A DNA stretch of 64,000 nucleotides from Candidatus Iainarchaeum sp. (GCA_021158055.1 JAGGVJ010000019.1:23940-87939), one strand, 5' to 3'; numbered from the stretch's first letter, positions 3,480 to 61,172 are shown. The notes: a model not told the origin generated them from the letters alone. A program made the numbers and translations.

Positions 3480-3594
3480 GTTGCGATAGTGCACTGATAA
3501 GGGTCGAGTCACTGGCTTAGCGGATGATGCACAAGGTCAGTGGCGCAGTAGACAGCGCGACAGGTTAATGTTGAAGCAGCAGTGCAATAAGTTG

Positions 3595-3762
3595 TTATTG
3601 CAGCGGGATCGTGTGGAGAATCAGCACTACGCCAATGAGAATTCCGGCCGCGACAATAACAATTTCAGGGCTTATCTGAGGCCCTGCGGCATCTCCGTCA
3701 AAAAATCTCATTATCCCGATTGAAGTGTTCGGCTGCTGGACGCTTGTTTTTTTTATTTTCAT
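3595..3762 (-). CDS. secG: Preprotein translocase subunit Sec61beta (archaeal SecG)
   Basis: About 55 aa. Conserved G(I/L)MRFFD motif (SIGIMRFFDGDAAGPQISPE) followed by a single C-terminal TM. The ORF track start at 3789 is TTG; ATG at 3762 fits the family length. Confidence 0.7.
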   Translation of the reverse strand: MKIKKTSVQQPNTSIGIMRFFDGDAAGPQISPEIVIVAAGILIGVVLILHTIPLQ

Positions 3763-3886
3763 TTTATTGCACCTTAAAATTTTTTGCAATTGTTAGTGTT
3801 GTTTATTTTTTTATTTATTTGATAACTCGTTAATTTTTCATTTGTTACCATTATTAATATAAATCAATGGATTAATATTATTTACT

Positions 3887-6528: not shown

Positions 6529-6646
6529 ATACTGAAAAGTTATTTATGTTGTGCCTGGTATTTATATTGTTTAACAGGTCTTTTTGTTGATTTAATTTAT
6601 TTTTGGCGTTGTGATTGATTTTTTATAATATTTTGAAGGTGATTTG

Positions 6647-7957
6647 ATGTTTATCAGACAGGATTATGCAGTGGAAGTGACATCCGAAAGGGATGGTCAG
6701 GAAGTTGTCGTTGCAGGGTGGGCTCATGAAATCCGTGACCTTGGCGGGATAAAGTTCATTCTTGTCCGGGACAAGACAGGTATTGTTCAGCTTGCACTGC
6801 CAAAGAAAAAAGTTTCTGAAAGCATCTGGAACGTGCAGATATCAAAGGAAGACGTTTTGCAGGTGAAAGGCGTTGTCAAAAACTCGCCGAATGCCCCGAA
6901 CGGAGTCGAAGTGATTCCGTCAGAAATCAATGTTTTAAGCAAGGCCGTTTCCCCTCTTCCTCTTGAAGTCACCGGAAAGGTGGAGTCAGAGTTTGACACG
7001 CGTATAAAATCCAGGTTCATGGACCTTAGAAAACCGGACATAGCCGCAATATTCAAGGTCAGGGATGCTGTTTTGACCGGTGTGCGTGACTTTTTTGAGT
7101 CGGAAAAATTCATTGAAATCAACTCGCCGAGAATCATCGGTGCCGGCTCTGAAGGAGGGTCTGAACTTTTTCCCCTTCCTTATTACGGAAAGGAAGCGTT
7201 TCTTGCGCAGTCCCCGCAGCTTTACAAGCAGATAATAATGGCGTCGGGTTTTGACAGGATTTATGAAATCGGCCCTGTTTTCAGGGCGGAAAAGTTTGAC
7301 ACTACAAGGCACATAAGTGAAATAATCATGGTTGACTCGGAAATGTCTTTTATTGAAGATGAGTCAGCTGTCATGGATGTTTTAGGCAAGATGCTTGTGT
7401 CGGTTCTCCGACACGTGAAGAAGGTCTGCTCAGAAGAACTTGAGCTTCTTGGAATTGAGCTGGGAATACCCAACTTGCCTCTGCGCCAGGTAACTTATGA
7501 TGAAGTAATCGCGCTTTTGCAGGAGAACGATGAAAAAATAAGCTGGGGGGAGGACTTGAGTGATCCCCAGGAAAGAAAGCTTGGCGAGCTCATGGCAAAA
7601 GAGGGCTTTGAAGCGTATTTCATAACCAGGTATCCGAGTGACATAAAAGCTTTTTATATCATGGAAGATGATTCAAATCCAAAGTATTCAAAGGCCTTTG
7701 ACCTTGATTACATGGGAATTGAACTTGCTTCCGGGGGCCAGCGTGAACACCGCGTTGACAGGCTTGTTGAGCGCATAAAGAAAAAAGGCATGAGTCCTGA
7801 ACAGCTTGGTTTTTACATTGAAGCATTCAAATACGGGATGCCTCCGCACGGCGGGTTCGGACTTGGGCTTGACCGCATGGTGCAGCTGATTTTGAGGCTT
7901 CCAAACGTAAAAGAGTCTGTTCTTTTCCCAAGGGATATCAAGCGCCTTATCCCTTAA
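6647..7957 (+). CDS. aspS: Aspartyl-tRNA synthetase, archaeal type (class IIb)
   Basis: N-terminal OB anticodon-binding domain. Motif 2 FRAE (PVFRAEKFDTTRH). Motif 3 GGFGLGLDR. Confidence 0.9.
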   Translation: MFIRQDYAVEVTSERDGQEVVVAGWAHEIRDLGGIKFILVRDKTGIVQLALPKKKVSESIWNVQISKEDVLQVKGVVKNSPNAPNGVEVIPSEINVLSKAVSPLPLEVTGKVESEFDTRIKSRFMDLRKPDIAAIFKVRDAVLTGVRDFFESEKFIEINSPRIIGAGSEGGSELFPLPYYGKEAFLAQSPQLYKQIIMASGFDRIYEIGPVFRAEKFDTTRHISEIIMVDSEMSFIEDESAVMDVLGKMLVSVLRHVKKVCSEELELLGIELGIPNLPLRQVTYDEVIALLQENDEKISWGEDLSDPQERKLGELMAKEGFEAYFITRYPSDIKAFYIMEDDSNPKYSKAFDLDYMGIELASGGQREHRVDRLVERIKKKGMSPEQLGFYIEAFKYGMPPHGGFGLGLDRMVQLILRLPNVKESVLFPRDIKRLIP

Positions 7958-7992
7958 ACGGCAAGGCATTTTTTGTTTTTTGCAGAAACATT

Positions 7993-8559
7993 TTAAAGCT
8001 TGAATTCCATGTCCACTGCGTTGTGGCTGAAGTAAGCCGTAAAGCTCACCAGAAAAATCATTGTGCTAAGCAGCACCATGACTGATTCGTCTGGAGTTGT
8101 GCCTGAGTATTCAGCTATTTTTTCAAATGAAAAGTAATAGATTGTAACCGCAACCAGGCTGTAAATAATTGCCGCGCGTATTGTGTGGGTGAAGCCCCTA
8201 TGCCTTGGCTTGAACAGCGTGATTGCGACAAAGGTTATCACAAACCCTGCCACAGCAGCAACAGCCGCAGTTGCCAGGTCGTCGGTGTGCATTAAGGCTG
8301 CTGAAAACAAGGCGATTGCAATCAATACGCACAAAAAGTTTCTTGTCTGCTTGTAGATGTTTGATCTCCTGTGGTCAATGTCCGGAAGAATGCTTCCGAG
8401 AACGGAAAATACAAGGGCAAAAAGTCCTGTTGCGGTGATGAGGGTTGACTCAAAGATGTTTTCTGTAAGTCCGAGGTCTGACGCAAACATGAAAAGAACC
8501 AGTGCAAACATGAAGAAGATCATTATTCCTATGAGTGCATGAACTTTTCCGGACGCCAT
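7993..8559 (-). CDS. Membrane-bound metal-dependent hydrolase-like protein (DUF457/YdjM-like)
   Basis: Multi-TM protein with conserved His/Asp positions (LPDIDHRRS, GFTHT). Confidence 0.45.
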   Translation of the reverse strand: MASGKVHALIGIMIFFMFALVLFMFASDLGLTENIFESTLITATGLFALVFSVLGSILPDIDHRRSNIYKQTRNFLCVLIAIALFSAALMHTDDLATAAVAAVAGFVITFVAITLFKPRHRGFTHTIRAAIIYSLVAVTIYYFSFEKIAEYSGTTPDESVMVLLSTMIFLVSFTAYFSHNAVDMEFKL

Positions 8560-30475: not shown

Positions 30476-30579
30476 GCGGGGATCGCATAGCCTGGTAGTG
30501 CGCTGGTCTCGAAATCGCCCGAAAGGGCCCAAGGCAGCCAGTGTCCCTGGACACGGGGGTTCGAATCCCTCTCCCCGCG
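30476..30579 (+). tRNA. tRNA-Ser (anticodon CGA) with a 22-nt canonical intron between positions 37 and 38
   Basis: Acceptor GCGGGGA/TCCCCGC. D arm GCAT-AGCCTGGTA-GTGC. Anticodon stem CTGGT/GCCAG with loop CTCGAA[intron ATCGCCCGAAAGGGCCCAAGGC]A. Long variable arm TGTCCCTGGACAC. T arm GGGGG-TTCGAAT-CCCTC. Discriminator G, no encoded CCA. Confidence 0.7.
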
Positions 30580-35154: not shown

Positions 35155-36054
35155 CTATTTTAGTGAGTGATGTCTTTCAAGAATGTTGCCTGCAAGCTTA
35201 AAGTTTCCGAAAGGCATTATGTGCGCGCCTGCAAAGCCCAGCTTTTTTGCCTTTTCCAGCATTTCATTGGAAAATTTCAGGTTGCTTTGTGTGTCTTCTA
35301 TTTCTGAAATGACTTCTTCGGGAATTGTTATTCCAGGCACATGTTCATTAAGGAACTTTGCTGTTTTTGCAGAGGTGAGCAAAAGGATTCCGGGAAGGAT
35401 TTTGGTGTTGATGTCTTTTGTTGCTTTAAAGAATTCTTCAAGCAAAGTTAAGTCAAAAAAAGGCTGGGTCTGAATAAATTGCGCTCCAAAAAGTGCTTTT
35501 TGCCTGATTCTTTTTATTTCAGGGTTTTTTGCTGTTGCAAAAGATCCTCCGCCTATGAATGCATCAAACTTGTTTTCAAGGGGGTTTCCGGCAAAGTCAG
35601 CTGAATTTTCAATCATGGTGTTTACTTTTGAGATCAGTTCAATTGAGTTCATTTCAAAAACTGCTTTGGCTTTGGGGTTGTCCCCGAGTTTCGGGGGGTC
35701 GCCTGTTAAAAGCAAAAAGTTGTCTATTCCTTTTGCTTTTGCGCCAAGCAAGTCGGATTGTATTGCAATTGAGTTCCTGTCCCGGCATGTTATCTGCATA
35801 ATCGGTTCAAACCCAAGCGAAACAAGTTCAATTGACGGCACAAGCGAGTTCATTATGACGTTTCCCATGGGACAGTCCACTACATTCACTGCGTCTGCAA
35901 GCACGCAGGCTTTCAGAGCACTGTTTGTGAACTGGAAGGAGGGGGACTTCATAGGGTCTATTTCAATTGTGAGTGCAAACTGATTGTTTTCAAGTTTTTC
36001 CCGGAAAGTCTGGATTTCCTTAAGATCGTGGTTTTGAAAGTTGTTTTTTTTCAT
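35155..36054 (-). CDS. metF: Methylenetetrahydrofolate reductase (MetF family)
   Basis: IMQITCRDRNSIAIQSDLLGAKAKGIDNFLLLTGDPP, matching hlTCRDrN...GirNiLaLrGDPP. Confidence 0.75.
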   Translation of the reverse strand: MKKNNFQNHDLKEIQTFREKLENNQFALTIEIDPMKSPSFQFTNSALKACVLADAVNVVDCPMGNVIMNSLVPSIELVSLGFEPIMQITCRDRNSIAIQSDLLGAKAKGIDNFLLLTGDPPKLGDNPKAKAVFEMNSIELISKVNTMIENSADFAGNPLENKFDAFIGGGSFATAKNPEIKRIRQKALFGAQFIQTQPFFDLTLLEEFFKATKDINTKILPGILLLTSAKTAKFLNEHVPGITIPEEVISEIEDTQSNLKFSNEMLEKAKKLGFAGAHIMPFGNFKLAGNILERHHSLK

Positions 36055-36110
36055 GTTATCCTTGGTTTGCTTTTGTTTTACGTTAAAGATTGTTTTCGTT
36101 TTTACTGAAA

Positions 36111-36518
36111 TTATTTTTGGCTTTTTGAAATTTCAATGGGTTTGTCCTGAGTATATTGCAGACCGAATTTTAAAGACATTTCTGCCTTGTGCAATTCTTT
36201 TCCAAGGTATGCGTAGTGTTCGGGAAGAGACGCTTTTTCGTTTTCGATTATTGCCTGGTATACTGCAGTGGCGGTTTTTCCTACTATTGTGCTTGTCAGT
36301 TTTCCTGTAAGCATGGCACCGCCGTCAAGCACATTTTCGTAGTGTTCTGCTATAATTTGCTTTTTTTCCAGGTCATTGTGGATTACAAAAAACCCGTTCG
36401 GATCGTATTCAATTGATTTGCGTTCTTTTGCCTTGATTAATCTTACGTTATTGTCGTCGTTTTTGTTTTCTTCTGTTATTTTGAATTGTCTTTTGAGGAA
36501 TTCTATTTGTTCACTCAA
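36111..36518 (-). CDS. Hypothetical protein inside the C1 operon
   Basis: 135 aa with no recognisable motif. Its end overlaps thyA by 8 nt. TTG start. Confidence 0.4.
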   Translation of the reverse strand: MSEQIEFLKRQFKITEENKNDDNNVRLIKAKERKSIEYDPNGFFVIHNDLEKKQIIAEHYENVLDGGAMLTGKLTSTIVGKTATAVYQAIIENEKASLPEHYAYLGKELHKAEMSLKFGLQYTQDKPIEISKSQK

Positions 36519-37197
36519 TATTCAACACCTCTTTTACGTTTTCCCAGTTGTGGTCATAGATGTGGGCTGAACCGGAAACACAAGTGATGCTGCCGGTTTC
36601 AAAACCGCTTCCGTCTGCGACTTTTTTCATAAGGTTGGCAAGGCCGTACATATTTGCGGGCCAGGCTCCAAAACAGTCGTGAGAGCGAAAGTAAAGGTGA
36701 AGATGCAGCTTGCTGTCTCTTACCTGGAAATGAGTGAATATGAGGCAAGGCGCTTCATCGGATTCGGTGTCAATTGGAGGAATCCAAGTGTGGCATATTG
36801 CTCTTCTTGTGTTTGATGAAGCTTTCAGTTTTTTTATCACCCAGTCAATCTGGTTTAATTCATTGTTCCATTTGTGCAGGCGGTTCCCGTAAGTGTATTT
36901 GAATTCTCCCGGGTCGCTTGAAAGAATCGTCTGGTTTGTGTACTGTTCAAGCCGTTCTTTTGACCAGGGAAACCCTTTTGGTGTCATTGGCTCTTCAAGC
37001 GGGTTTTCTATGTATGCCAAAAGCTGGAGTATTTCTTTTGTGTCGTTGTCGTACTCGCTGTGAAGAATGTGCCCCCGTTTCCATATTGCCTTGATTACTT
37101 TTGGCCAGGTTTCCCCGATTGTTTTTCCTTTGACAAAAGTTCCGATTTTTGTCGGCTTTCCTGGTTCATTGCTTTCAAAAGTCAAGTGTGTCCCCAT
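36511..37197 (-). CDS. thyA: Thymidylate synthase (ThyA family, short archaeal form)
   Basis: APCLIFTHFQVRDSKLHLHLYFRSHDCFGAWPANMYGLANLM aligns with the E. coli ThyA [40 protein letters not shown] active-site region, including the nucleophilic Cys. Confidence 0.8.
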   Translation of the reverse strand: MGTHLTFESNEPGKPTKIGTFVKGKTIGETWPKVIKAIWKRGHILHSEYDNDTKEILQLLAYIENPLEEPMTPKGFPWSKERLEQYTNQTILSSDPGEFKYTYGNRLHKWNNELNQIDWVIKKLKASSNTRRAICHTWIPPIDTESDEAPCLIFTHFQVRDSKLHLHLYFRSHDCFGAWPANMYGLANLMKKVADGSGFETGSITCVSGSAHIYDHNWENVKEVLNIE

Positions 37198-37263
37198 CTA
37201 TTCTTGTTTTTTTGTTCATTTATAGTTTGCGTAGGTTTCGTGAAGTTTGTGTTTTTTGTTTTT

Positions 37264-38160
37264 TTATTTATAGATATTTAACCCGAAATCGTTTTCCGCT
37301 TCTTTTTGCATCTCGTGCACGAATGCTGCTGCGGGAAACACGTTTTCTGCGAGTTCGATTGGTCCGAAAAGCAAAAAGTTTGAACCAAAAGCCATCTGCA
37401 TTGAATTTGCAGCTACATTGCATTCGTTTTTGAATTTTTTGTGGTTTGAGTCTGAAAGCCATTCCCACGACGATATCGCATTGTGTATTCCGTTTCCGGA
37501 TGGAAGCCCGAACTTTGCTTTAACTGAAGAAACGGCGCGGACAGATGCCGCGGCACCATGGCCCAGCGGAGTGGTTGCCGTGTCAATCAAAAAATTCTGC
37601 ACCCCTGCTTCTTTTGCAATATCAACAAGGCTTTTTTTAAGGAGATTGTCTTCGCAGAGCAGGTTTAGCTTCCCGGCAAGCGATGAATCCTTTGGATTGT
37701 ATAAGAGGATTATCGCCGATTCAACGTCTGTGTTTTTGAGTTCGGTTATTTCTTTTTCAGTTACTGAAAAATTTATGGAGTTATAAATCATTTGGTCGCT
37801 TACGCCTGTTTCTGTTGCGTACTCGGCGCCGTAAAGGCGTGTTTCCGATTCTGTTGAGTCAATTATAATTGGGCCTTCAAAGAGATTGCATGCAAAATCA
37901 ATGCGTTCTTCCATTGACTGCGGGCTGTCTGCAAATATTTGTATTGCGCCGGGTATTCCTGTTGAATCTGATGCTTCAAGCTGTTTGTTTATGAGGTCTT
38001 CAGCGCGTTTTGAGTCAAATGAACCTGATTCGCCGGTGAGTATGTTGTGTTTTGAATAAAAAATTGTTCCGCAAAGCATGGTTGGTGTTTGCCCTGGCTG
38101 GCCACCGATTTTTGTTCCGGCAATGTCAAAAATTTTTTGTGGTTTTGAAAAAACAAACAT
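37264..38160 (-). CDS. MtrH-like methyl-tetrahydromethanopterin/tetrahydrofolate:corrinoid methyltransferase (pterin-binding)
   Basis: N-terminus MFVFSKPQKIFDIAGTKIGGQPGQTPTMLCGTIFY, compare MtrH [30 protein letters not shown]. Confidence 0.7.
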   Translation of the reverse strand: MFVFSKPQKIFDIAGTKIGGQPGQTPTMLCGTIFYSKHNILTGESGSFDSKRAEDLINKQLEASDSTGIPGAIQIFADSPQSMEERIDFACNLFEGPIIIDSTESETRLYGAEYATETGVSDQMIYNSINFSVTEKEITELKNTDVESAIILLYNPKDSSLAGKLNLLCEDNLLKKSLVDIAKEAGVQNFLIDTATTPLGHGAAASVRAVSSVKAKFGLPSGNGIHNAISSWEWLSDSNHKKFKNECNVAANSMQMAFGSNFLLFGPIELAENVFPAAAFVHEMQKEAENDFGLNIYK

Positions 38161-38177
38161 TTACTTCACCGTTTTTA

Positions 38178-38789
38178 CTATGCTGTCTGGTTTGCCTCAC
38201 TGGATTTTTCACCTATCACGCCTGTTTCGGGATCGAAAACTATTTTGTTTTCCGCGTCAATAACTGCGATATTTTCGCCGAGATTTAGGTTTATTTTTTT
38301 TTCTTTTTCTTTTTTTGTCACAAAAAACGGTTCTCCAAAATACCCCTGGTTTTCAAGTGCGCATCGTTTGATTTCTTTTATGATTGTGTCTTTGTTTTGT
38401 GTTCCCGTTAAATCAATGACCTGGACCTGTTCCCTGAAACGGTTCACTGCTTCCTGCGGAAGGTTTTCAAGAAACGGGATGGCTCCCTTTGAATTTATGA
38501 TGCGTTTGTTTTCGTCCAACCCAAACCTGCTAAGTGAAACAATTGATTGTCCTGTAAAGTGTCCTGTGACTTCTTCCCCGCACACAATTAAAAATCTTAT
38601 GTTCGGGTTTGCAATCAGGTTGGTTACGACGCGCTCTATTCCAAGGTTTTCTGTGAGAGCGCGCCCGTACAAGGCAACTTCGTTCAAGTCAAGTTTTATG
38701 TCTGAAAAAAGAGTGAGTACTGAAATGCTTGCGTTTGGATTTACAACAGTATAGCTCCCCTGCAGCACAGGCCATTTTTGTTTTTCCAT
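38178..38789 (-). CDS. MtrA-like corrinoid-binding protein (soluble MtxA-type, no C-terminal TM)
   Basis: WPVLQGSYTVVNPNASISVLTLFS...NPNIRFLIVCGEEVTGHFTGQ, matching the MtrA WPxxKGxY...NPNIRYLIVCG signature. Confidence 0.7.
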   Translation of the reverse strand: MEKQKWPVLQGSYTVVNPNASISVLTLFSDIKLDLNEVALYGRALTENLGIERVVTNLIANPNIRFLIVCGEEVTGHFTGQSIVSLSRFGLDENKRIINSKGAIPFLENLPQEAVNRFREQVQVIDLTGTQNKDTIIKEIKRCALENQGYFGEPFFVTKKEKEKKINLNLGENIAVIDAENKIVFDPETGVIGEKSSEANQTA

Positions 38790-39201
38790 CACTATGAATA
38801 TGGCAACGGATTCTTTTATAGATTTACTTTGCTTTGTTTGTTTGGTTTTATACCTGGTTTTTGTTTAGCTTTAATGCAAATTTTGTTCTCAAAAGGCTCC
38901 TTCAAGAAGCCCTTATTTTTTACAGGGATGCACTATTATTTGATGAAAATATAGTGGTTTAGAGGATTTATTTTTTTGAAAAAAACAAAAATGTATGTTT
39001 TTTCGACAATAAGTTTAAAAATAAGTTCTGTAAGTAAAATTAATTACAGTTTATGAGTTATTTTGGCATGCATCAGAAAACCTTGTTTTTAGTTATTCTG
39101 ATGCATAAGGGTTTTTTGTTACCGTGTGGTTATTATTTGCGGCGTGTATTTATTATTTGCAGTACTTTATTATTTGGTTTTGAAAATTTAAAATGTGATT
39201 A

Positions 39202-51820: not shown

Positions 51821-54076
51821 ATGGAAGAAACTGATTTTGCAAAGAACAACAAGTATGCCTGGCGGGAATTTAAAGGAGGCGCATGGCAAAACGAGATCAA
51901 TGTGCAGGATTTTATTCAAGCCAACTATTTTTTTTACTCGGGAAACGAGTCGTTTCTTGAAAAGCCGACTCAAAGGACCCTGGAACTTTTTTCCAAAAAG
52001 AAAGAACTTTTGAAAAAAGAAGCGAAAAGAAACGGGGTTTATGATATCGACGTGAAAACCCCTTCAACGATTATTTCTCATGCTCCCGGCTATGTTGACA
52101 GAAAACTTGAGCTCATTGTCGGCTACCAGACAGACCAGCCTCTTAAAGTCGGAATAAAACCGAAAGGGGGGATAAAGTTTACTGAAAAGGCCTGCAATGC
52201 CTACGGTTTTGAGCTTGATGAAACAGTAAAGGATATTTTTGAAAATTATTCAAAGACACACAACGACGGTGTTTTTTCCGCTTATTCAAAAGACATCAAA
52301 AATCTTCGCCACAATTGTCTGATTACAGGCCTTCCTGACAACTACGGCAGAGGGCGTATAATCGGTGACTACAGGAGAGTTGCCCTTTACGGCGTAAAAA
52401 AACTGATTGCTGAAAAGCAAAAGGACTTTGAAAAACTTTCATTTTCAGACATACAGCTGCGGGAAGAAGTTTTCGAGCAGATAAGCGCTCTTGAAGAACT
52501 GATTGAAATGGCTTATTCTTACGGGTTTGACCTGACCCGCCCGGCACTAGACGCAAGGGAAGCGGTTCAATGGACCTGGTTTGCATACCTTGCGGCAATC
52601 AAGGAACAGGACGGCGCTGCCATGTCTTTTGGAAGGGTTGATTGTTTTTTTGACATATTTATAGAACGCGACTTAAAAGAAGGAACCCTGACTGAAAGCC
52701 GGGCGCAGGAACTTATTGACCAGCTTATACTTAAAATGAGGTTTGTAAGGCATTTAAGGCACCCGGAATACAATGCCTTGTTTGCAGGACAGCCGACGTG
52801 GATAACTTGCGTGATAGGCGGCATGACTGTTGCCAACGATGTTGACAAAAAACCCCTTGTGACAAAAACTTCTTTTCGCATGCTTCACACTTTGACTAAT
52901 CTGGAACCTGCACCTGAACCCAATCTCACTGTGCTTTGGAGTGAATCCCTCCCAGGTGATTTTAAGGAATATTGCTGCAGGATAAGCATTGAATCAAGTT
53001 CCATCCAGTACGAAAACGACGACCTGATGAAACCGCTGTTCGGAACCGATTACGCGATTGCCTGTTGCGTAAGTGCCATGAGAATCGGAAAAGAAATGCA
53101 GTTTTTCGGGGCACGGTGCAACGGCCCAAAACTGCTTTTGCTTGCATTGAACGGCGGAAAAGACGAGCTGACCGGAAACCAGATTGCCCCTGCCAAGCCG
53201 GTTCCCTCCGGAGAGTTTCTGGATTATGCTGAAGTCAGGGAAAAATATTTGTTTTACTGCGACTGGCTTGCAGAGCAATACGTTAACGCAATGAACATAA
53301 TTCACTTCATGCACGACAAGTATGCCTATGAAAGTTTGCAGATGGCTTTGCATGACACCAGTGTAAAGAGGTTTATGGCCTTTGGCCTTGCAGGGCTGAG
53401 CGTGATTGCCGACTCGTTGTCTGCCATCAGGTACGCGAAAGTCAAACCTGTAAGGGATGAAAACGGTATTGCAGTTGATTTTGAAGTGCAGGGTGATTTT
53501 CCAAAGTTTGGAAACGATGATTCAAGAGCAGATGATTTGGCTGTTGAAGCAGTGAATGCATTCATCGGATTTCTGAAAAAATATCCGACTTACAGGAATT
53601 CAGAGCACAGCCTTTCAATTCTCACAATCACTTCAAACGTAGTATACGGGAAAAAAACCGGTGCAACACCTGACACGAGAAAAAGCGGCGAGCCGTTTGC
53701 TCCGGGCGCAAACCCAATGCATGGAAGAGACACAGAGGGAGCGGTTGCTTCTTTGAACAGCGTTGCCAAAATCCCTTATTCCTCGTGCCTTGACGGCATT
53801 TCAAACACTTTTTCCATTGTTCCCGCGTTTCTTGGAAAAACAGAGAAAGACAGGATAGCCAACCTCAAAGGCCTTATTGAAGGATATTTTGCCAAAAACG
53901 GGCATCATCTCAATGTAAATGTGCTTGACAGGGATCTTTTGCTTGACGCCATGAAAAACCCGCAGAAATATCCGAATCTCACCATAAGGGTTTCAGGTTA
54001 TGCCGTTAATTTCACAAGATTGAATAAAGAACAGCAAAAAGAAGTGGTTTCAAGAACATTTCATTGCTCGGTTTAA
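51821..54076 (+). CDS. pflB: Formate C-acetyltransferase (pyruvate formate-lyase-type glycyl radical enzyme)
   Basis: Glycyl-radical motif [11 protein letters not shown]. Adjacent catalytic cysteines ACCVSAM. Confidence 0.85.
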
Positions 54077-54127
54077 TTTATTTGTTTGTTTTGTTAATTT
54101 ATTTGTTTTGATTTAAGGGTGCTTTTG

Positions 54128-54874
54128 ATGGATTCTGCCAGGGGAAAAATTGAAGGGCAAATTAACTCTCTCCAGTCTTTTGGAACCCTTGACGGCCCGG
54201 GGATACGTTATGTTGTTTTCATGCAAGGATGCCCACTAAAATGTGTTTTTTGCCATAACGCCGGTGCGATTGACCTGAAAGGTGGAAAAAAAGTCACTTT
54301 GGACAAACTCATGGAAAAAATTGACAAATGCATTCCTTACCTTAAGCAAGGCGGAATAACTGTCAGCGGCGGGGAGCCAACTCTTCAGTGGCGGTTTGTC
54401 AAGGAGTTTCTTTCAGCGTGCGGGCAAAGGGGTCTCCACACAGCGCTGGATACGTGTCTTTTCACTAAAAAAGATGTTTTAGTCAACCTTATCCCGGAAG
54501 TTGATTTGTTTTTGGTTTCAGTCAAGCACATGGATGCGGAAAAACACTTTGGGTTGACCGGAAGGGACAACAAGCTGATTTTGGAGAACATCAGGTATGC
54601 GGCGTCAAAAAAGCCTGTCTGGCTGAGGTATGTGTTGATTGAAGGCATAACTGATTCAGAGGAAGACCTGCTTGACCTGATTGGTTTTGCAAAAAAGCTT
54701 GAAAAGCTTGAGTTAATTGAACTTCTTTCATTTAGTTCAATGGGTGTTGAAAAGCAAAGGGAATTCAAGGGTTTTAAAATCACGAAAACAAAAGATCTCA
54801 AGGCGCCTTCCCTGAAAAAAGTGCTTTGGGCAAAAAAACTGCTTGAAGAGAACGGGTTTAAAGTGGTTGTTTGA
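54128..54874 (+). CDS. pflA: Pyruvate formate-lyase activating enzyme (radical SAM)
   Basis: CPLKCVFCHN (Cx3Cx2C). GGITVSGGEP. Confidence 0.85.
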   Translation: MDSARGKIEGQINSLQSFGTLDGPGIRYVVFMQGCPLKCVFCHNAGAIDLKGGKKVTLDKLMEKIDKCIPYLKQGGITVSGGEPTLQWRFVKEFLSACGQRGLHTALDTCLFTKKDVLVNLIPEVDLFLVSVKHMDAEKHFGLTGRDNKLILENIRYAASKKPVWLRYVLIEGITDSEEDLLDLIGFAKKLEKLELIELLSFSSMGVEKQREFKGFKITKTKDLKAPSLKKVLWAKKLLEENGFKVVV

Positions 54875-57556: not shown

Positions 57557-57665
57557 TGGCGGACGGGGAGGGATTCGAACCCGCGATCTGCAGATTAGAA
57601 GTCTGCCGCCCTATCTGCCAACAATCCCTTTGAAAGGTATTGGTTCCTGGCTAGGCTACCCGTCC
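57557..57665 (-). tRNA. tRNA-Arg (anticodon TCT) with an approximately 31-nt insertion (non-canonical intron) in the D-loop; CCA encoded
   Basis: Acceptor GGACGGG/CCCGTCC. GCCT-AGCCAGG[AACCAATACCTTTCAAAGGGATTGTTGGCAG]ATA-GGGC. Anticodon stem GCAGA/TCTGC, loop CTTCTAA. T arm GCGGG-TTCGAAT-CCCTC (one C-U mismatch). Discriminator G plus CCA. Confidence 0.55.
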
Positions 57666-57766
57666 ACTGGATTAAGTAATATATCACTTGTTTTATTAAA
57701 ATTCTTTTCTTTATCGGTTCTTTTAATATTCTTTTAATGTGCTGTGTTGTTTTTGACGTGAATGTT

Positions 57767-59731
57767 TTACATTTTTTCAGGCACTTCGATCCCCAAAAGC
57801 TTCAACGCTGCTTCAAGCGTGTTTTTGGTTGCAAGGACAAGCGCGAGCCGTGCCTGGCGCTCTTCTTGTTTTTCAGCGTTCAGGACCTGTTTCAGATTGT
57901 AAAAAGAACTGAAAGCGCTTGCAAGTTCTGTTGTGTATTCTGTGAGAATGTTTGGCTTGAGTTCAAGCGCAGTCTTGTCAACTGCTTCGCAAAACCCCCA
58001 TAGTTTTCTGACAAGGGCTTTTTCAACTTCGCTTGAAAGAACGCTTGCGTCAAACTTGCTTAAGTTGCTTGTATCGATTTGTTTTTCCTTTGCTTTTGAA
58101 AGTATTTTTGAAGCACGCACGCACGCGTACTGCAGGTACGGCCCGCTTTCGCCTTCAAAGCTCAAGACCTCATCCCACTTGAAAATGATTTTTTTGTCAG
58201 GGCTTACTTTTGCAAGGGCAAAAATCACTGCTCCAACCCCCACTTTTTCGCTGACGTCAGCCAGTTCTTTTTTGTTCATTGAAAGGCTCGGGTCTGTTTT
58301 CGCACGTCCATTGATAAGAGTTTTCACGCGTTCAACTGACTCGTCCAGCACTTCGTCAGTGCTTACCCCTGCCCCGACCCAAGTGCCTTTTCTTCCGGAA
58401 ATTTTTGCATCAGGCAAAACCACAAACTCGTAAGACAAGTGATGCAGGTTTTCGGCTTCTTTCACAAAACCCATTGCCTCAAGTGACTTTTTAACAACTT
58501 TTTGCGGGTATTTTTGCTCCGAGCCGATCACGTTGATGGCTGCGTCAACAGAGTTGAACTCCGGCTTTTCCTCTCCCCTGCTTTCGTGTTCATGCTCCTG
58601 TACGCCTGAATCTTTGCTTACCACGCACCATAAGACAGCGCCGTTTTTTTGAACAAGGTGTTTTTTGTATTTGAGCTTGGTGTCGGAAAGCCCGAATTTC
58701 CACAAGTGAAACCCGATGTCTTTTCCAGTGTAAGTGGTTGCGCCGTTTGAGCGCACAATAATTTTGTCAGGGTTTTCCATTCCCCTGAATTCGTCAAGGT
58801 GTCCGAGTTTGACCACAAAACAACCCTTGTTTGGCCCTTGTTCTTCTTTCACAAGGCTTTTGCCTTTTTTCAGGTGCTCAATGGCTCTTTCAACCACTCC
58901 GTTTTTAACAAGGTCTGACTCGCGGACCATGACATCTGAAAAAACATTCATGCGCTGTGTAGTAATTTTTTGTGCGTCAACTGACTCAAGAGCAATTTTT
59001 TCAGCGAAAGTTGCAGTTTCGTTTCCGCCTTCCTCCATTTTTTTCATGATCCCGTTGACTTCTTTGCTGACTTTCGGGTCATCGATTTTTTTTGCGACTT
59101 CAACGTATTGTATTCCCTGCCAGTAATCAAGTTTCATTGACGGGTCCGGCGTGCCGCAAAGGTTTTGATAACCCCAGACAGTTTGCGCGACCTGCAGCCC
59201 AAGGTCGTCAGGGTAATCCATCCTGACAACAAGGTTTCCCACAAACTCAAGGGCGTTTGACACGATCATCCCAAGAACAGCATTTCTTGCGTGCCCGATG
59301 TGAAGCGGTTTTCCAGGGTTTACTGAAGGAAACTCGACAGTTATTTTTTTGGTTTTTTTAGCAGGCTTTGGCTTGATTTTTTTCCCGATTGCAGCAGAGA
59401 CAGTGTCTTTTGCAAACCCTTCAAATTCAAGGAAAAAATTGACGTACCCTGGCCCGGCTGTTTCAACGCGTTCAAAAGAACTCCCTTTAATCCCTATTTT
59501 TGAAGCAAGTTTTTTTGCAATGAGTGCAGGCGGTTTTTTGAGCATTTTTGACAAATCAAAGCAAATGGTTGATGAAAAGTCCCCGAGTTTCGGGTCAGGC
59601 GGCACTTCAATTGAAGAAAGTATTTTTTCGCTGTCAAAATCCTTATCAGCTTCAAGGAGTTTTGAAACCCCTAATTTCACAAGTTCCGCTGCCTGTGTTT
59701 TGTATTTGTTTGTCAAAAAATCAACCTGCAA
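57767..59731 (-). CDS. argS: Arginyl-tRNA synthetase
   Basis: HIGHARN class I motif. C-terminal DALR anticodon-binding region. TTG start in the ORF track. Confidence 0.9.
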   Translation of the reverse strand: MQVDFLTNKYKTQAAELVKLGVSKLLEADKDFDSEKILSSIEVPPDPKLGDFSSTICFDLSKMLKKPPALIAKKLASKIGIKGSSFERVETAGPGYVNFFLEFEGFAKDTVSAAIGKKIKPKPAKKTKKITVEFPSVNPGKPLHIGHARNAVLGMIVSNALEFVGNLVVRMDYPDDLGLQVAQTVWGYQNLCGTPDPSMKLDYWQGIQYVEVAKKIDDPKVSKEVNGIMKKMEEGGNETATFAEKIALESVDAQKITTQRMNVFSDVMVRESDLVKNGVVERAIEHLKKGKSLVKEEQGPNKGCFVVKLGHLDEFRGMENPDKIIVRSNGATTYTGKDIGFHLWKFGLSDTKLKYKKHLVQKNGAVLWCVVSKDSGVQEHEHESRGEEKPEFNSVDAAINVIGSEQKYPQKVVKKSLEAMGFVKEAENLHHLSYEFVVLPDAKISGRKGTWVGAGVSTDEVLDESVERVKTLINGRAKTDPSLSMNKKELADVSEKVGVGAVIFALAKVSPDKKIIFKWDEVLSFEGESGPYLQYACVRASKILSKAKEKQIDTSNLSKFDASVLSSEVEKALVRKLWGFCEAVDKTALELKPNILTEYTTELASAFSSFYNLKQVLNAEKQEERQARLALVLATKNTLEAALKLLGIEVPEKM

Positions 59732-59760
59732 ATTCCAGTTTTTAAATTTTTGAATGCATG

Positions 59761-59870
59761 CGGGCCGAGGAGGATTCGAACCCCCGACCTGCGGGTGACT
59801 TCAACAGGATTCTTTTTGAAAAAACCTGTTTCCGAAGCCCGCCGCAATATCCAGGCTATGCTACCGGCCC
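59761..59870 (-). tRNA. tRNA-Arg (anticodon TCG) with an approximately 34-nt canonical 37/38 intron
   Basis: Acceptor GGGCCGG/TCGGCCC. D arm GCAT-AGCCTGGATA-TTGC. Anticodon stem GCGGG/CCCGC, loop CTTCGG[AAACAGGTTTTTTCAAAAAGAATCCTGTTGAAGTC]A. T arm GGGGG-TTCGAAT-CCTCC. Confidence 0.65.
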
Positions 59871-60064
59871 ATGTTATGCTGTTTGTAATATAATCAGTAT
59901 TATTTAATTGTTTTATTATTTATACAGTTTGTTTCAATAAAAACAATTGGTTTGCTTTTGTTCCGGTTAAAACAAGCAGTGATTCTTTTAAAGATAGAGC
60001 AGTGATTCCTTTAAAAGCAAATCAGTGGATCTTTTAAAACCATAAAAGCAGTTATTTCAAAACT

Positions 60065-60171
60065 TGGCGGGCCCGGAGAGATTTGAACTCTCGATCTCTG
60101 GCTCCGCAAGCCAGCGCCCTATTTGCTTATCAAATGCATCCGCAGTTGATTCCAGGCTAGGCAACGGGCCC
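60065..60171 (-). tRNA. tRNA-Arg (anticodon GCG) with an approximately 29-nt D-loop insertion; CCA encoded
   Basis: Acceptor GGGCCCG/CGGGCCC. GCCT-AGCCTGG[AATCAACTGCGGATGCATTTGATAAGCAA]ATA-GGGC. Anticodon stem CTGGC/GCCAG, loop TTGCGGA. T arm GAGAG-TTCAAAT-CTCTC. Confidence 0.65.
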
Positions 60172-60684
60172 TTCAAGTACTTTTTTCACTTTGTCAAGCG
60201 TGTTTTCAAAGTTTTTTATGAAAATGATGTCGTTGTATTTTTTGCTTACCTTAATCAGCTGGTTTTCTACATTGAAGTCTTTTATGGCACTTTCTTTTTC
60301 ATTGCTCCTGAACACAAGCCAGTCTTGTGCATTCGCATCGTATATCAGACTGAATATGTCTTTTGCGTTGTCAATTGTGAGGTAAGTTATAAAACAGCCG
60401 TATTTGAATTCAAAATCAATGTTTTTTTTCTTGAGTTTTTCCCGCAAGATTTTTTCGTTTCCCCCGCTTATGAGAACGCTCCACCCGTTTTTTAGCTCCG
60501 TGAGTTCCAGAACCAGCTTTACCGTAAGGTCTTGCGAATAGTTGCGCGAAAGGTAAAGCCATTTTTTTATGAACGGAATCTTTTTCATGGTTCCGATAAA
60601 AACAGCTGTTTTGTCTTCAAGAGACCACATATATCCTTTTCCGATTTCTTTGGCGCAACGGGCATCAAGTTTTATTTTATCCAT
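60157..60684 (-). CDS. Hypothetical protein embedded in the tRNA-Arg cluster
   Basis: 175 aa with no motif recognised. Its last codons overlap the 5' end of tRNA-Arg(GCG). Confidence 0.35.
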   Translation of the reverse strand: MDKIKLDARCAKEIGKGYMWSLEDKTAVFIGTMKKIPFIKKWLYLSRNYSQDLTVKLVLELTELKNGWSVLISGGNEKILREKLKKKNIDFEFKYGCFITYLTIDNAKDIFSLIYDANAQDWLVFRSNEKESAIKDFNVENQLIKVSKKYNDIIFIKNFENTLDKVKKVLEGPVA

Positions 60685-60807
60685 TTTTAAATCCCAGCCA
60701 TCTTTTGTATATAGCTTGTTTAAAGCTATTTAAACAAGTATTATTCAGTTTATTATCTTATTCTTTTTTTGTCAATTCAGCCATAATTCAATTGTTTTTT
60801 TGTTTAT

Positions 60808-60999
60808 TTATGTTTTGTTGTAAAGGTACAGGCCTGCCGAAAAAAGAACCAGGGCTGCTATTATCGGTGCAAAAATAATCAGGAAATTGACTGTAAAGAC
60901 TGCGAAAATCAGCAATGCCAAAAGCATTGCAATAACACCTGCAATCTGGTGTATCCTGTTTGGCTTTTTCGGGCCGCCGACGATTTCTACTTTTATCAT
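60808..60999 (-). CDS. Small 2-TM membrane protein; hypothetical
   Basis: 63 aa, two hydrophobic helices. Confidence 0.3.
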   Translation of the reverse strand: MIKVEIVGGPKKPNRIHQIAGVIAMLLALLIFAVFTVNFLIIFAPIIAALVLFSAGLYLYNKT

Positions 61000-61042
61000 G
61001 CAATCTCTCTTATAATGTAATTCGTTTCTTGTTTGTGTTTTT

Positions 61043-61172
61043 CTGGCGGACCCGGAGAGATTTGAACTCTCGACTTACAGCTTTCACCAACCAAGGCTGG
61101 TTGTAGGAGGCTGTCGCCCTATTTTCCCACAATGCTTTTAACGGCATTGGCTCCAGGCTAGGCTACGGGTCC
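61043..61172 (-). tRNA. tRNA-Arg (anticodon CCT) with two insertions: about 30 nt in the D-loop and about 21 nt at 37/38; CCA encoded
   Basis: Acceptor GGACCCG/CGGGTCC. GCCT-AGCCTGG[AGCCAATGCCGTTAAAAGCATTGTGGGAAA]ATA-GGGC. Anticodon stem ACAGC/GCTGT, loop CTCCTA[CAACCAGCCTTGGTTGGTGAA]A. T arm GAGAG-TTCAAAT-CTCTC. Confidence 0.6.

Follow-up and report, generated by a model that had tools for sequence, protein, structure and literature searches.

We analyzed a stretch of 64,000 nucleotides (64 kb; hereafter the window) from Candidatus Iainarchaeum sp. (GCA_021158055.1 JAGGVJ010000019.1:23940-87939), in which argS, the gene of an arginyl-tRNA synthetase (ArgRS), lies among four tRNA-Arg genes. 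Positions are those of the window unless a contig is named. On the minus strand, read from 5' to 3', the locus comprises tRNA-Arg(CCT) (61172..61044), an open reading frame (ORF) of 63 amino acids for a hydrophobic, predicted membrane protein (60999..60808), an orphan ORF of 175 amino acids (60684..60157), tRNA-Arg(GCG) (60171..60065), tRNA-Arg(TCG) (59870..59761), argS (59731..57767) and tRNA-Arg(TCT) (57665..57557), which begins 101 nt downstream of the argS stop codon. The two ORFs were taken from the ORF list, and argS was identified by its Pfam domains. An earlier note on this DNA, made from the sequence alone, had placed the four tRNA genes, argS and the two ORFs on one strand, and each was found where it had been placed. 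By a T-arm scan, the 64 kb contain no more than five tRNA-like genes, namely tRNA-Ser(CGA) at 30476 and the four Arg genes. Since four of the only five are Arg genes, their clustering is not due to chance.

The tRNA genes were poorly recognized in their unspliced form. ARAGORN reported only one gene in the window and mis-called it as Leu; with introns allowed, it found tRNA-Arg(tcg) i(40,35). The Rfam tRNA model detected the TCG and CCT genes in full (45.5 and 45.1 bits, respectively), only the 3' part of the TCT gene (31.9 bits), and the GCG gene partially and below the threshold (27.9 bits). The TCT, GCG and CCT genes share a D-arm, GCCU-AGCC(A/U)GG ... AUA-GGGC, which is broken after GG by inserts of 31 nt (57645..57615), 29 nt (60151..60123) and 30 nt (61152..61123), respectively. 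The inserts open with AACCAA, AATCAA and AGCCAA. The same D-loop is uninterrupted in the TCG gene (AGCCUGGAUA). In addition, canonical introns at position 37/38, both with bulge-helix-bulge (BHB) motifs, are present in the TCG gene (35 nt, 59831..59797) and in the CCT gene (21 nt, 61103..61083), the latter thus having two introns. The earlier note had given the same range of lengths and the same starting letters for the D-loop inserts and had likewise counted two introns in the CCT gene, and these descriptions hold.

Deletion of the five inserts in silico gave four sequences of 75 nt, followed by CCA in three of them. ARAGORN then recognized each as a tRNA-Arg (anticodons tct, tcg, gcg and cct). 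The spliced D-loops become AGCC(U/A)GGAUA, that is, the D-loop of the TCG gene, which has no intron there. The reported identity elements of arginine tRNAs are C35 in the anticodon, A20 in the D-loop and a purine at position 73, A20 being the main one (PMC9976931). After splicing, all four tRNAs have C35, A20 and G73, and their cloverleaf stems and conserved nucleotides are intact. The TCT tRNA shows one C50.U64 mismatch in the T stem; the 50:64 pair is likewise variable or mismatched among the metagenomic tRNA-Arg(TCT) genes described below. The 3' CCA is encoded in the three genes with D-loop inserts (57557-57559, 60065-60067 and 61044-61046) and not at 59758-59760 after the TCG gene.

The mature sequences are 68-80% identical to one another, the closest pairs being GCG/CCT (60/75) and TCT/CCT (59/75). 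The D-loop introns of the TCT and CCT genes have approximately 22 of 31 nt in common. The likeness of these two introns and of the corresponding mature tRNAs is consistent with duplication or gene conversion. The three D-loop introns are homologous to one another.

The geometry of the predicted splice sites was examined by an unbiased scan, in which all combinations of two cut sites within a precursor were scored for a BHB motif. The motif comprised an outer helix, a central helix of 4 bp (its 5' strand being the last exon nucleotides before a 2-nt overhang), a 3-nt bulge, an inner helix, and the mirror elements on the 3' side. Among all junction pairs, the G19|A20 junction ranked first in the TCT and GCG genes and third in the CCT gene, and each D-loop insert forms a BHB at this junction. 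The central helix is formed by G15-C16-C17-N17a and nucleotides -6 to -3 of the intron: GCCA/UGGC in TCT (4/4), GCCU/AAGC in GCG (3/4, with one C.A) and GCCU/GGGA in CCT (3/4, with one G.A). Two 3-nt bulges lie on opposite strands, G18-G19-A on one side and A-G-A20 or A-A-A20 on the other, that is, GGA and AGA in TCT and GGA and AAA in both GCG and CCT. The outer helix pairs C11-C12-U13-A14 with U20a-A21-G22-G23 (CCUA/UAGG in TCT and CCT) and corresponds to the D-stem shifted by one nucleotide. The inner helix of GCG is AUCAA/UUGAU (5 bp). In the minimum-free-energy fold of the D-arm, the outer helix was recovered for TCT and GCG, and a 3-nt bulge and the central helix were recovered for TCT as well. 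When the intron sequences were shuffled 20,000 times each, an equal or better BHB was obtained in 0.6% (TCT), 0.35% (GCG) and 3.5% (CCT) of the shuffles, any junction that yields the same mature sequence being counted. For comparison, the 37/38 intron of TCG is a textbook BHB without mismatch (central helix CUUC/GAAG, 4/4; outer helix, 5 bp; inner helix, 6 bp). The 37/38 intron of CCT is also a textbook motif and the best BHB of its gene (central, 3/4; outer, 5 bp; inner, 5 bp).

The earlier note had proposed non-canonical introns at about position 20/21. The intron reading is supported by the BHB geometry and by the covariation described below; the position is not, and is refined to 19/20. 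The repeated A makes 20/20a equivalent to 19/20 in sequence, and it is the BHB geometry that sets the junction at G19/A20. Two other arrangements were tried and rejected. In many homologues with introns that start with AUA, cutting at 20/20a, 20a/21 or 21/22 would yield an identical mature sequence, but a BHB forms only at 19/20, with the exception of one metagenomic locus (L027). A strict BHB that uses the normal D-stem as its outer helix fails, and pairing of nucleotides 11-14 with 20a-23 is required for the motif. To judge from the sequences, the D-loop motif may be slightly relaxed relative to the strict hBHBh' form.

Homologous genes were sought on metagenome contigs with the pattern GCCTAGCCWGGA-N19-49-ATAGGGCG-NNNRNCT, which is biased to the Arg-type D-arm. 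Of the 40 loci obtained, two were chance matches and 38 were tRNA genes with acceptor, anticodon and T arms. All 38 have an arginine anticodon and an insert at the same D-loop site. Together with the three genes of the window they make 36 distinct sequences (29 TCT, 4 CCT and 3 GCG), approximately 33 of which come from beyond the window. Their D-loop inserts are 24-45 nt long and very diverse, and many of the carriers have further introns at 37/38 and in the T-loop.

Thirty-five sequences were aligned with the splice sites as the only anchors (11 exon nucleotides, the first 8 and last 12 intron nucleotides, and 8 exon nucleotides). The BHB model paired 84% of the cells in this alignment, against 28-50% when the partners were slid by 1-3 columns. 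The covariation score was 0.382, against 0.07-0.11 for the slid registers, and none of 500 shuffles reached the observed values. In the central helix, 81% of the cells were paired, and nucleotide 17a changed together with intron nucleotide -6: of the 9 sequences with A17a, 8 have U as the partner, and all 27 with U17a have A or G (Fisher p = 3e-7). All five pairs of the inner helix showed changes on both sides. The outer helix was invariant because the search pattern fixed it, and is therefore uninformative on pairing. The anatomy of the genes, the BHB geometry, the covariation and the conservation of the site and of the gene order are shown by these analyses.

These observations bear on the possibility that the D-loop inserts are not removed but retained in the mature tRNAs. 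Position 20 lies in the variable region of the D-loop, which tolerates extra nucleotides, and every insert folds as a hairpin, which speak for retention. A retained hairpin, however, would have no need of ends that pair with the exon in exact BHB register and covary with it. The inserts also vary freely in length (24-45 nt) and sequence among lineages while the exons are fixed. Retention would moreover tie up G15-N17a and push A20, on which arginine identity chiefly depends (PMC9976931), out of its place, and both the intron-free paralogue and intron-free orthologues have exactly the D-loop that is predicted after splicing. It is therefore very improbable that the inserts are retained.

A 4.3-kb contig of a sister species (L052) was informative in this respect as well. 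It carries tRNA-Arg(CCT), a 63-aa ORF, a 174-aa ORF, tRNA-Arg(GCG), tRNA-Arg(TCG) and argS in the same order as in the window, and its four introns are all at the sites used in the window. The tRNA exons differ from those of the window by 1-6 nt, and the hairpin loops of the introns have diverged freely. In the hairpin of the CCT D-loop intron, CAAUGC/GCAUUG in the window is replaced by CGUGCC/GGCACG in the sister species, which amounts to four compensatory double changes. In the helix of the TCG intron, AACAGG/CCUGUU is replaced by AACAAG/CUUGUU, one compensatory change. Compensatory changes in the helices, together with nearly fixed exons and diverged loops, argue that these are spliced introns under structural constraint and not parts of pseudogenes. 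As a separate observation, the CCT gene of the sister species has CTA in place of CCA.

The pseudogene interpretation would take the insert-bearing genes as decaying duplicates, with working intron-free tRNA-Arg genes elsewhere in the genome. The view of the genome is 64 kb plus 2.9 kb of contig past the window end, the TCT gene has its C.U mismatch in the T stem, and the unspliced genes score poorly with ARAGORN and Rfam, all of which would fit decay. On the other hand, the sister-species comparison speaks against it, the same architecture recurs in approximately 33 other distinct genes from many environments, the stems and conserved nucleotides are intact once the genes are spliced, and the 50:64 pair is variable in other lineages too. 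We consider decay of these genes very unlikely, at a level hardly above that of insert retention.

The two ORFs between the CCT and GCG genes have no Pfam match. The 175-aa ORF found a single homologue, with 78% identity, in two exhaustive searches, one of 5.8 billion clusters and one of 1.84 billion representatives, and this homologue is encoded on L052. The AlphaFold2 model of the 175-aa protein is poor, with a pLDDT (predicted local distance difference test) of 54. The last 15 nt of this ORF (...EGPVA*) overlap the 5' end of tRNA-Arg(GCG) at 60157-60171 on the minus strand, the stop codon being the TAG in GCCTAGCC. The overlap is kept in the sister species (L052 2593-2607).

We consider it highly probable that the locus is a lineage-specific arginine-decoding neighborhood of an uncultured DPANN archaeon with four genuine tRNA-Arg genes, in which the three D-loop inserts are BHB introns at G19/A20. 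In the precursor, the 3' end of the intron would pair with G15-C16-C17-N17a of the D-loop to give the 4-bp central helix, nucleotides 11-14 of the D-arm would re-pair with 20a-23 to give the outer helix, and the intron hairpin would supply the inner helix. The two 3-nt bulges thus left, G18-G19-A (the last being intron nucleotide 1) and N-N-A20, would constitute a BHB substrate of the archaeal splicing endonuclease EndA. EndA would cut in both bulges, and RtcB-type ligation would then restore AGCC(U/A)GGAUA. The two enzymes and the splicing itself are inferred. The canonical BHB introns in the TCG, CCT and tRNA-Ser genes imply that the splicing machinery is present in the genome. The simplest account of the gene order would be inherited synteny (CCT ... 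argS-TCT) with local duplication of tRNA genes.

The product of argS has the architecture of a class Ia ArgRS, with an N-terminal Arg-specific domain (Arg_tRNA_synt_N, 1.8e-19), a class I catalytic core (tRNA-synt_1d, 5.3e-32) and a DALR anticodon-binding domain (DALR_1, 1.7e-30; Pfam E-values). The ORF from a TTG start is 654 aa long, and the database protein is 649 aa. ArgRS is 100% identical to an NCBI protein from a metagenome-assembled genome (MAG) named 'Candidatus Diapherotrites archaeon', and its next relatives, at approximately 45% identity, are labelled mostly as Micrarchaeota. Of its 1099 homologues, every named one is annotated as ArgRS.

In 25 genes of the window, AGG and AGA account for 66% of the arginine codons, so that the UCU and CCU tRNAs are needed, and CGC and CGU account for a further 23%. 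The three interrupted genes would thus be expected to serve the majority of arginine codons, provided that the genome has no further copies of them. A tRNA-Arg(CCG) gene was not found in the 64-kb window or in the 2.9 kb of contig past its end, a stretch that has no tRNA gene of any kind. The earlier note had regarded argS as co-localized with all of its cognate tRNAs seen here, only the CCG anticodon being missing; the lack of CCG was borne out over this range, and completeness beyond it was unsupported. Two other synthetase genes on the contig have no tRNA gene alongside, a class II Asp/Asn/Lys-type synthetase (6644-7957, plus strand) and glycyl-tRNA synthetase just past the window end (L003 1574-3136). 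This suggests that clustering with tRNA genes is specific to argS here.

The linkage of argS with tRNA-Arg genes was also seen in relatives. In a clade at 45% ArgRS identity, a TCT gene lies downstream of argS on the same strand, at a distance of 0.1 kb in L045, 1.9 kb in L050 and 4.8 kb in L049. An intron-free TCT gene lies 72 nt downstream of argS in an Anstonellales MAG (L054). In two further relatives a CCT gene lies upstream of argS on the same strand, at 1.5 kb (L051) and 4.6 kb (L046). From these arrangements, the CCT ... argS-TCT order looks inherited in this part of DPANN, and GCG and TCG look as if they had been added, or retained, in the lineage of the window. The earlier note had called the co-location unusual. 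The linkage is real, but it is conserved in only part of the lineage, and any functional coupling is hypothetical. Literature searches that bore on the linkage of argS with tRNA-Arg brought up nothing relevant.

Some features of these relatives stand apart from the linkage itself. The TCT genes downstream of argS in L045 (7957-8048), L049 (9207-9298) and L050 (8761-8850) are mis-called by ARAGORN. Their D-loop is intact, and they have a 16-17-nt insert in the anticodon stem with flanking GCAAG repeats; by eye, the best fit is a relaxed BHB at approximately 29/30 that lacks an outer helix (central helix GCGG/CCGC, 4/4). A divergent tRNA-Pro(CGG) gene lies just upstream of argS in L045 (5880-5952), L049 (2460-2532), L050 (4878-4951) and L054 (5370-5442), and is a second conserved, non-cognate tRNA neighbor of argS in these four Micrarchaeota-type contigs. 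In the Thermococcus-type locus L047, an RNA of the HgcC family (7885-7993, minus strand; Rfam 53 bits) lies directly downstream of argS and overlaps the start of an IS605 OrfB/Cas12f-like gene.

Several observations weigh against the reading of the locus as an arginine-decoding neighborhood with introns at G19/A20. With regard to the motif, the inner helix of GCG has 5 bp, but those of TCT and CCT have just 2 bp next to the bulge and face competition from a slipped 6-bp hairpin. A single mismatch interrupts the central helix of GCG and likewise that of CCT, and the outer helix forms only if the D-stem shifts its register by one nucleotide. Among the 35 homologues, 16 lack the C17 pair, and three metagenomic sequences depart from 19/20: L027 fits 20a/21, 2 nt further 3', and L024 and L043 fit no junction well. 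Neither EndA nor RtcB was found in the 64 kb by a Pfam scan of 57 of the 64 window ORFs of at least 70 aa. The predicted splicing is well supported at the level of sequence and covariation. With regard to the linkage, no tRNA gene is near argS in the Micrarchaeota loci L001 and L053 or in the Thermococcus-type loci L047 and L055. A search of the genome contigs for argS homologues gave two loci, the closest of which is L001. An argS gene occurs in none of the 40 metagenomic loci, the 38 tRNA-Arg loci with a D-loop intron included; the sole carrier checked, L041, is of the Woesearchaeota type. Finally, the spacers between argS and the tRNA gene in L045 and L054 contain runs of five T (T5) and AT-rich boxes.

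The spacers also bear on the possibility that the proximity to argS is functional. In such a case, the genes might form a co-expressed unit, for example by read-through from tRNA(TCG) via argS to tRNA(TCT), which balances the enzyme with its substrate, or ArgRS might bind the precursor in cis. It is consistent with this idea that the adjacency recurs among relatives whose ArgRS are just 41-45% identical and that the gap between tRNA(TCG) and the argS start is no more than 30-45 nt in the window. The window has no T5 run between the argS stop codon and tRNA(TCT) and has one directly after this tRNA, which is compatible with read-through. The T5 runs in the L045 and L054 spacers, however, are not compatible with it and argue against an obligatory co-transcript; the AT-rich boxes in these spacers are promoter-like. 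Inserted genes part argS from the tRNA by 1.9-4.8 kb in L050 and L049, and the linkage is missing altogether in the Micrarchaeota, Thermococcus and metagenomic loci named above. We therefore regard a functional role of the proximity as unlikely, and any regulatory meaning of it as putative. As a gene order, argS-tRNA-Arg is a candidate for co-regulation that alone leaves the current understanding unchanged.

To judge from the carriers, the 19/20 intron of tRNA-Arg is widespread among DPANN-type archaea and not peculiar to the Candidatus Iainarchaeum genome. Their G+C contents range from 26% to 53%. The topoisomerase VI B subunit encoded on one carrier (L041) is 92-95% identical to proteins of MAGs labelled as Nanoarchaeota or Woesearchaeota, and on another (L018) an RtcB-like ORF, judged by eye from its sequence, lies a few kb from the tRNA-Arg gene. 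A tRNA-Arg(TCT) gene on L011 (approximately 3560-3782, minus strand) has three introns, in the D-loop, the anticodon loop and the T-loop. The latter two have approximately 35 nt in common (AGCCCTTTCTT...AGAAAGCGCTT[C/A]AGCGGAAAGA), which looks like an intron copied within one gene.

As for the host, the argS neighborhood includes genes for fibrillarin, Nop56/58, a thermosome subunit and an A-type ATPase operon, which point to an archaeon. In two further assemblies of the same population, the tRNA region is identical. Three other features of the window are recorded here. The tRNA-Ser(CGA) gene (30476-30579, plus strand) combines a long variable arm with an insert of approximately 22 nt in the anticodon loop; the BHB of this insert looked imperfect by eye (central helix 3/4, slipped inner helix). 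At 35155-38792 on the minus strand, genes for methylenetetrahydrofolate reductase, MtrH and MtrA are grouped with those for a pterin-binding DUF4346 protein and a thymidylate-synthase-like protein, and the block has no other Mtr subunits. Such a C1/pterin gene set is unusual for a small DPANN-type genome. At 51821-54874 on the plus strand, the gene of a 751-aa pyruvate formate-lyase-like glycyl-radical enzyme adjoins that of its own radical S-adenosylmethionine activase.

A further, rather speculative reading is that the G19/A20 intron is old and specific to tRNA-Arg, having been kept in several DPANN lineages (Woesearchaeota/Nanoarchaeota as well as the Diapherotrites-labelled one), that in the lineage of the window the tRNA genes bearing it are kept beside argS as one arginine-decoding module, and that it serves as a checkpoint at A20 against arginylation of unspliced precursors. 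The intron abuts A20, and A20 lies in the 3' splice bulge, so that it could act as such a checkpoint. The apparent Arg-specificity of the 19/20 site is to be read with the search pattern in mind, which was drawn from the Arg-type D-arm only. We think this reading unlikely as it stands. If true, it would set this intron apart from the non-canonical introns described to date, which are sporadic and restricted to particular lineages.

The locus is of more immediate consequence for annotation. Failures of ARAGORN and Rfam of the kind seen here could make this organism, and many DPANN MAGs, seem to be without decoders of AGA/AGG and CGU/CGC, and approximately two thirds of the arginine codons here are read by the tRNAs concerned. 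tRNAscan-SE 2.0 does seek such introns; its models were trained on Crenarchaeota, Euryarchaeota and Thaumarchaeota (PMC8450103). The homologues also provide a comparative data set on inheritance versus gene conversion versus re-insertion in intron evolution, and the precursors offer DPANN EndA enzymes a naturally occurring substrate in which a near-strict BHB lies outside the anticodon loop.

Among known arrangements of a synthetase gene with tRNA genes, pylT-pylS is comparable to the argS locus in that the synthetase gene adjoins its cognate tRNA gene and the order is kept in related genomes. The pylTS genes, however, are a dedicated orthogonal pair for the 22nd amino acid, whereas the window has a housekeeping ArgRS among ordinary isoacceptors, with patchy linkage.

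The introns themselves resemble several described systems. BHB introns in the D-loop are established for the pre-tRNA-Thr(UGU) of Aeropyrum pernix and the pre-tRNA-Glu(UUC) of Methanopyrus kandleri, at 20b/21, and '20/21' is listed as a recurrent intron site for Crenarchaeota/Nanoarchaeota (PMC4090602, PMC3241643, PMC5829648). Like these, the introns of the window are short, lie beside position 20 in the D-loop, form a BHB between exon and intron, and often occur with a 37/38 intron in the same gene. They differ in their site, which is 19/20 here, and in their occurrence in three isoacceptors of one amino acid and at the same site in the tRNA-Arg genes of many DPANN-type contigs. The M. kandleri motif is reported to be a relaxed HBh', whereas those of the window are near-strict 3-4-3 BHBs. 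Multi-intron tRNAs together with a broad-specificity EndA are likewise documented in DPANN (PMC3239211, PMC5829648, PMC12397907), the EndA being of the epsilon2 type or of the alpha4 type with an L3 loop. The likeness to ARMAN-2/Candidatus Micrarchaeum lies in the DPANN host, in tRNAs disrupted at several positions and in up to two or three introns per gene (PMC3239211, PMC5829648); the metagenomic relatives of the window genes also have T-loop introns. The ARMAN-2 introns given as examples in the main text are at 37/38, 53/54 and 59/60, in contrast to the D-loop 19/20 site of the window.

The intron transposition described in Thermoproteales is a further point of comparison, since similar introns occur there in different tRNA genes of one genome, as in the TCT and CCT genes of the window and, within one gene, in L011. 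The introns of the window differ in being at the same position in paralogous isoacceptors, so that duplication or gene conversion accounts for their likeness no less well than transposition. BHB introns in the D-loop and multi-intron tRNAs of DPANN are thus already known, and the window is a largely ordinary, well-supported example of them. What may be new is that a single site recurs in one tRNA isotype across DPANN, that it immediately precedes the identity nucleotide A20, and that there is partial synteny with argS.

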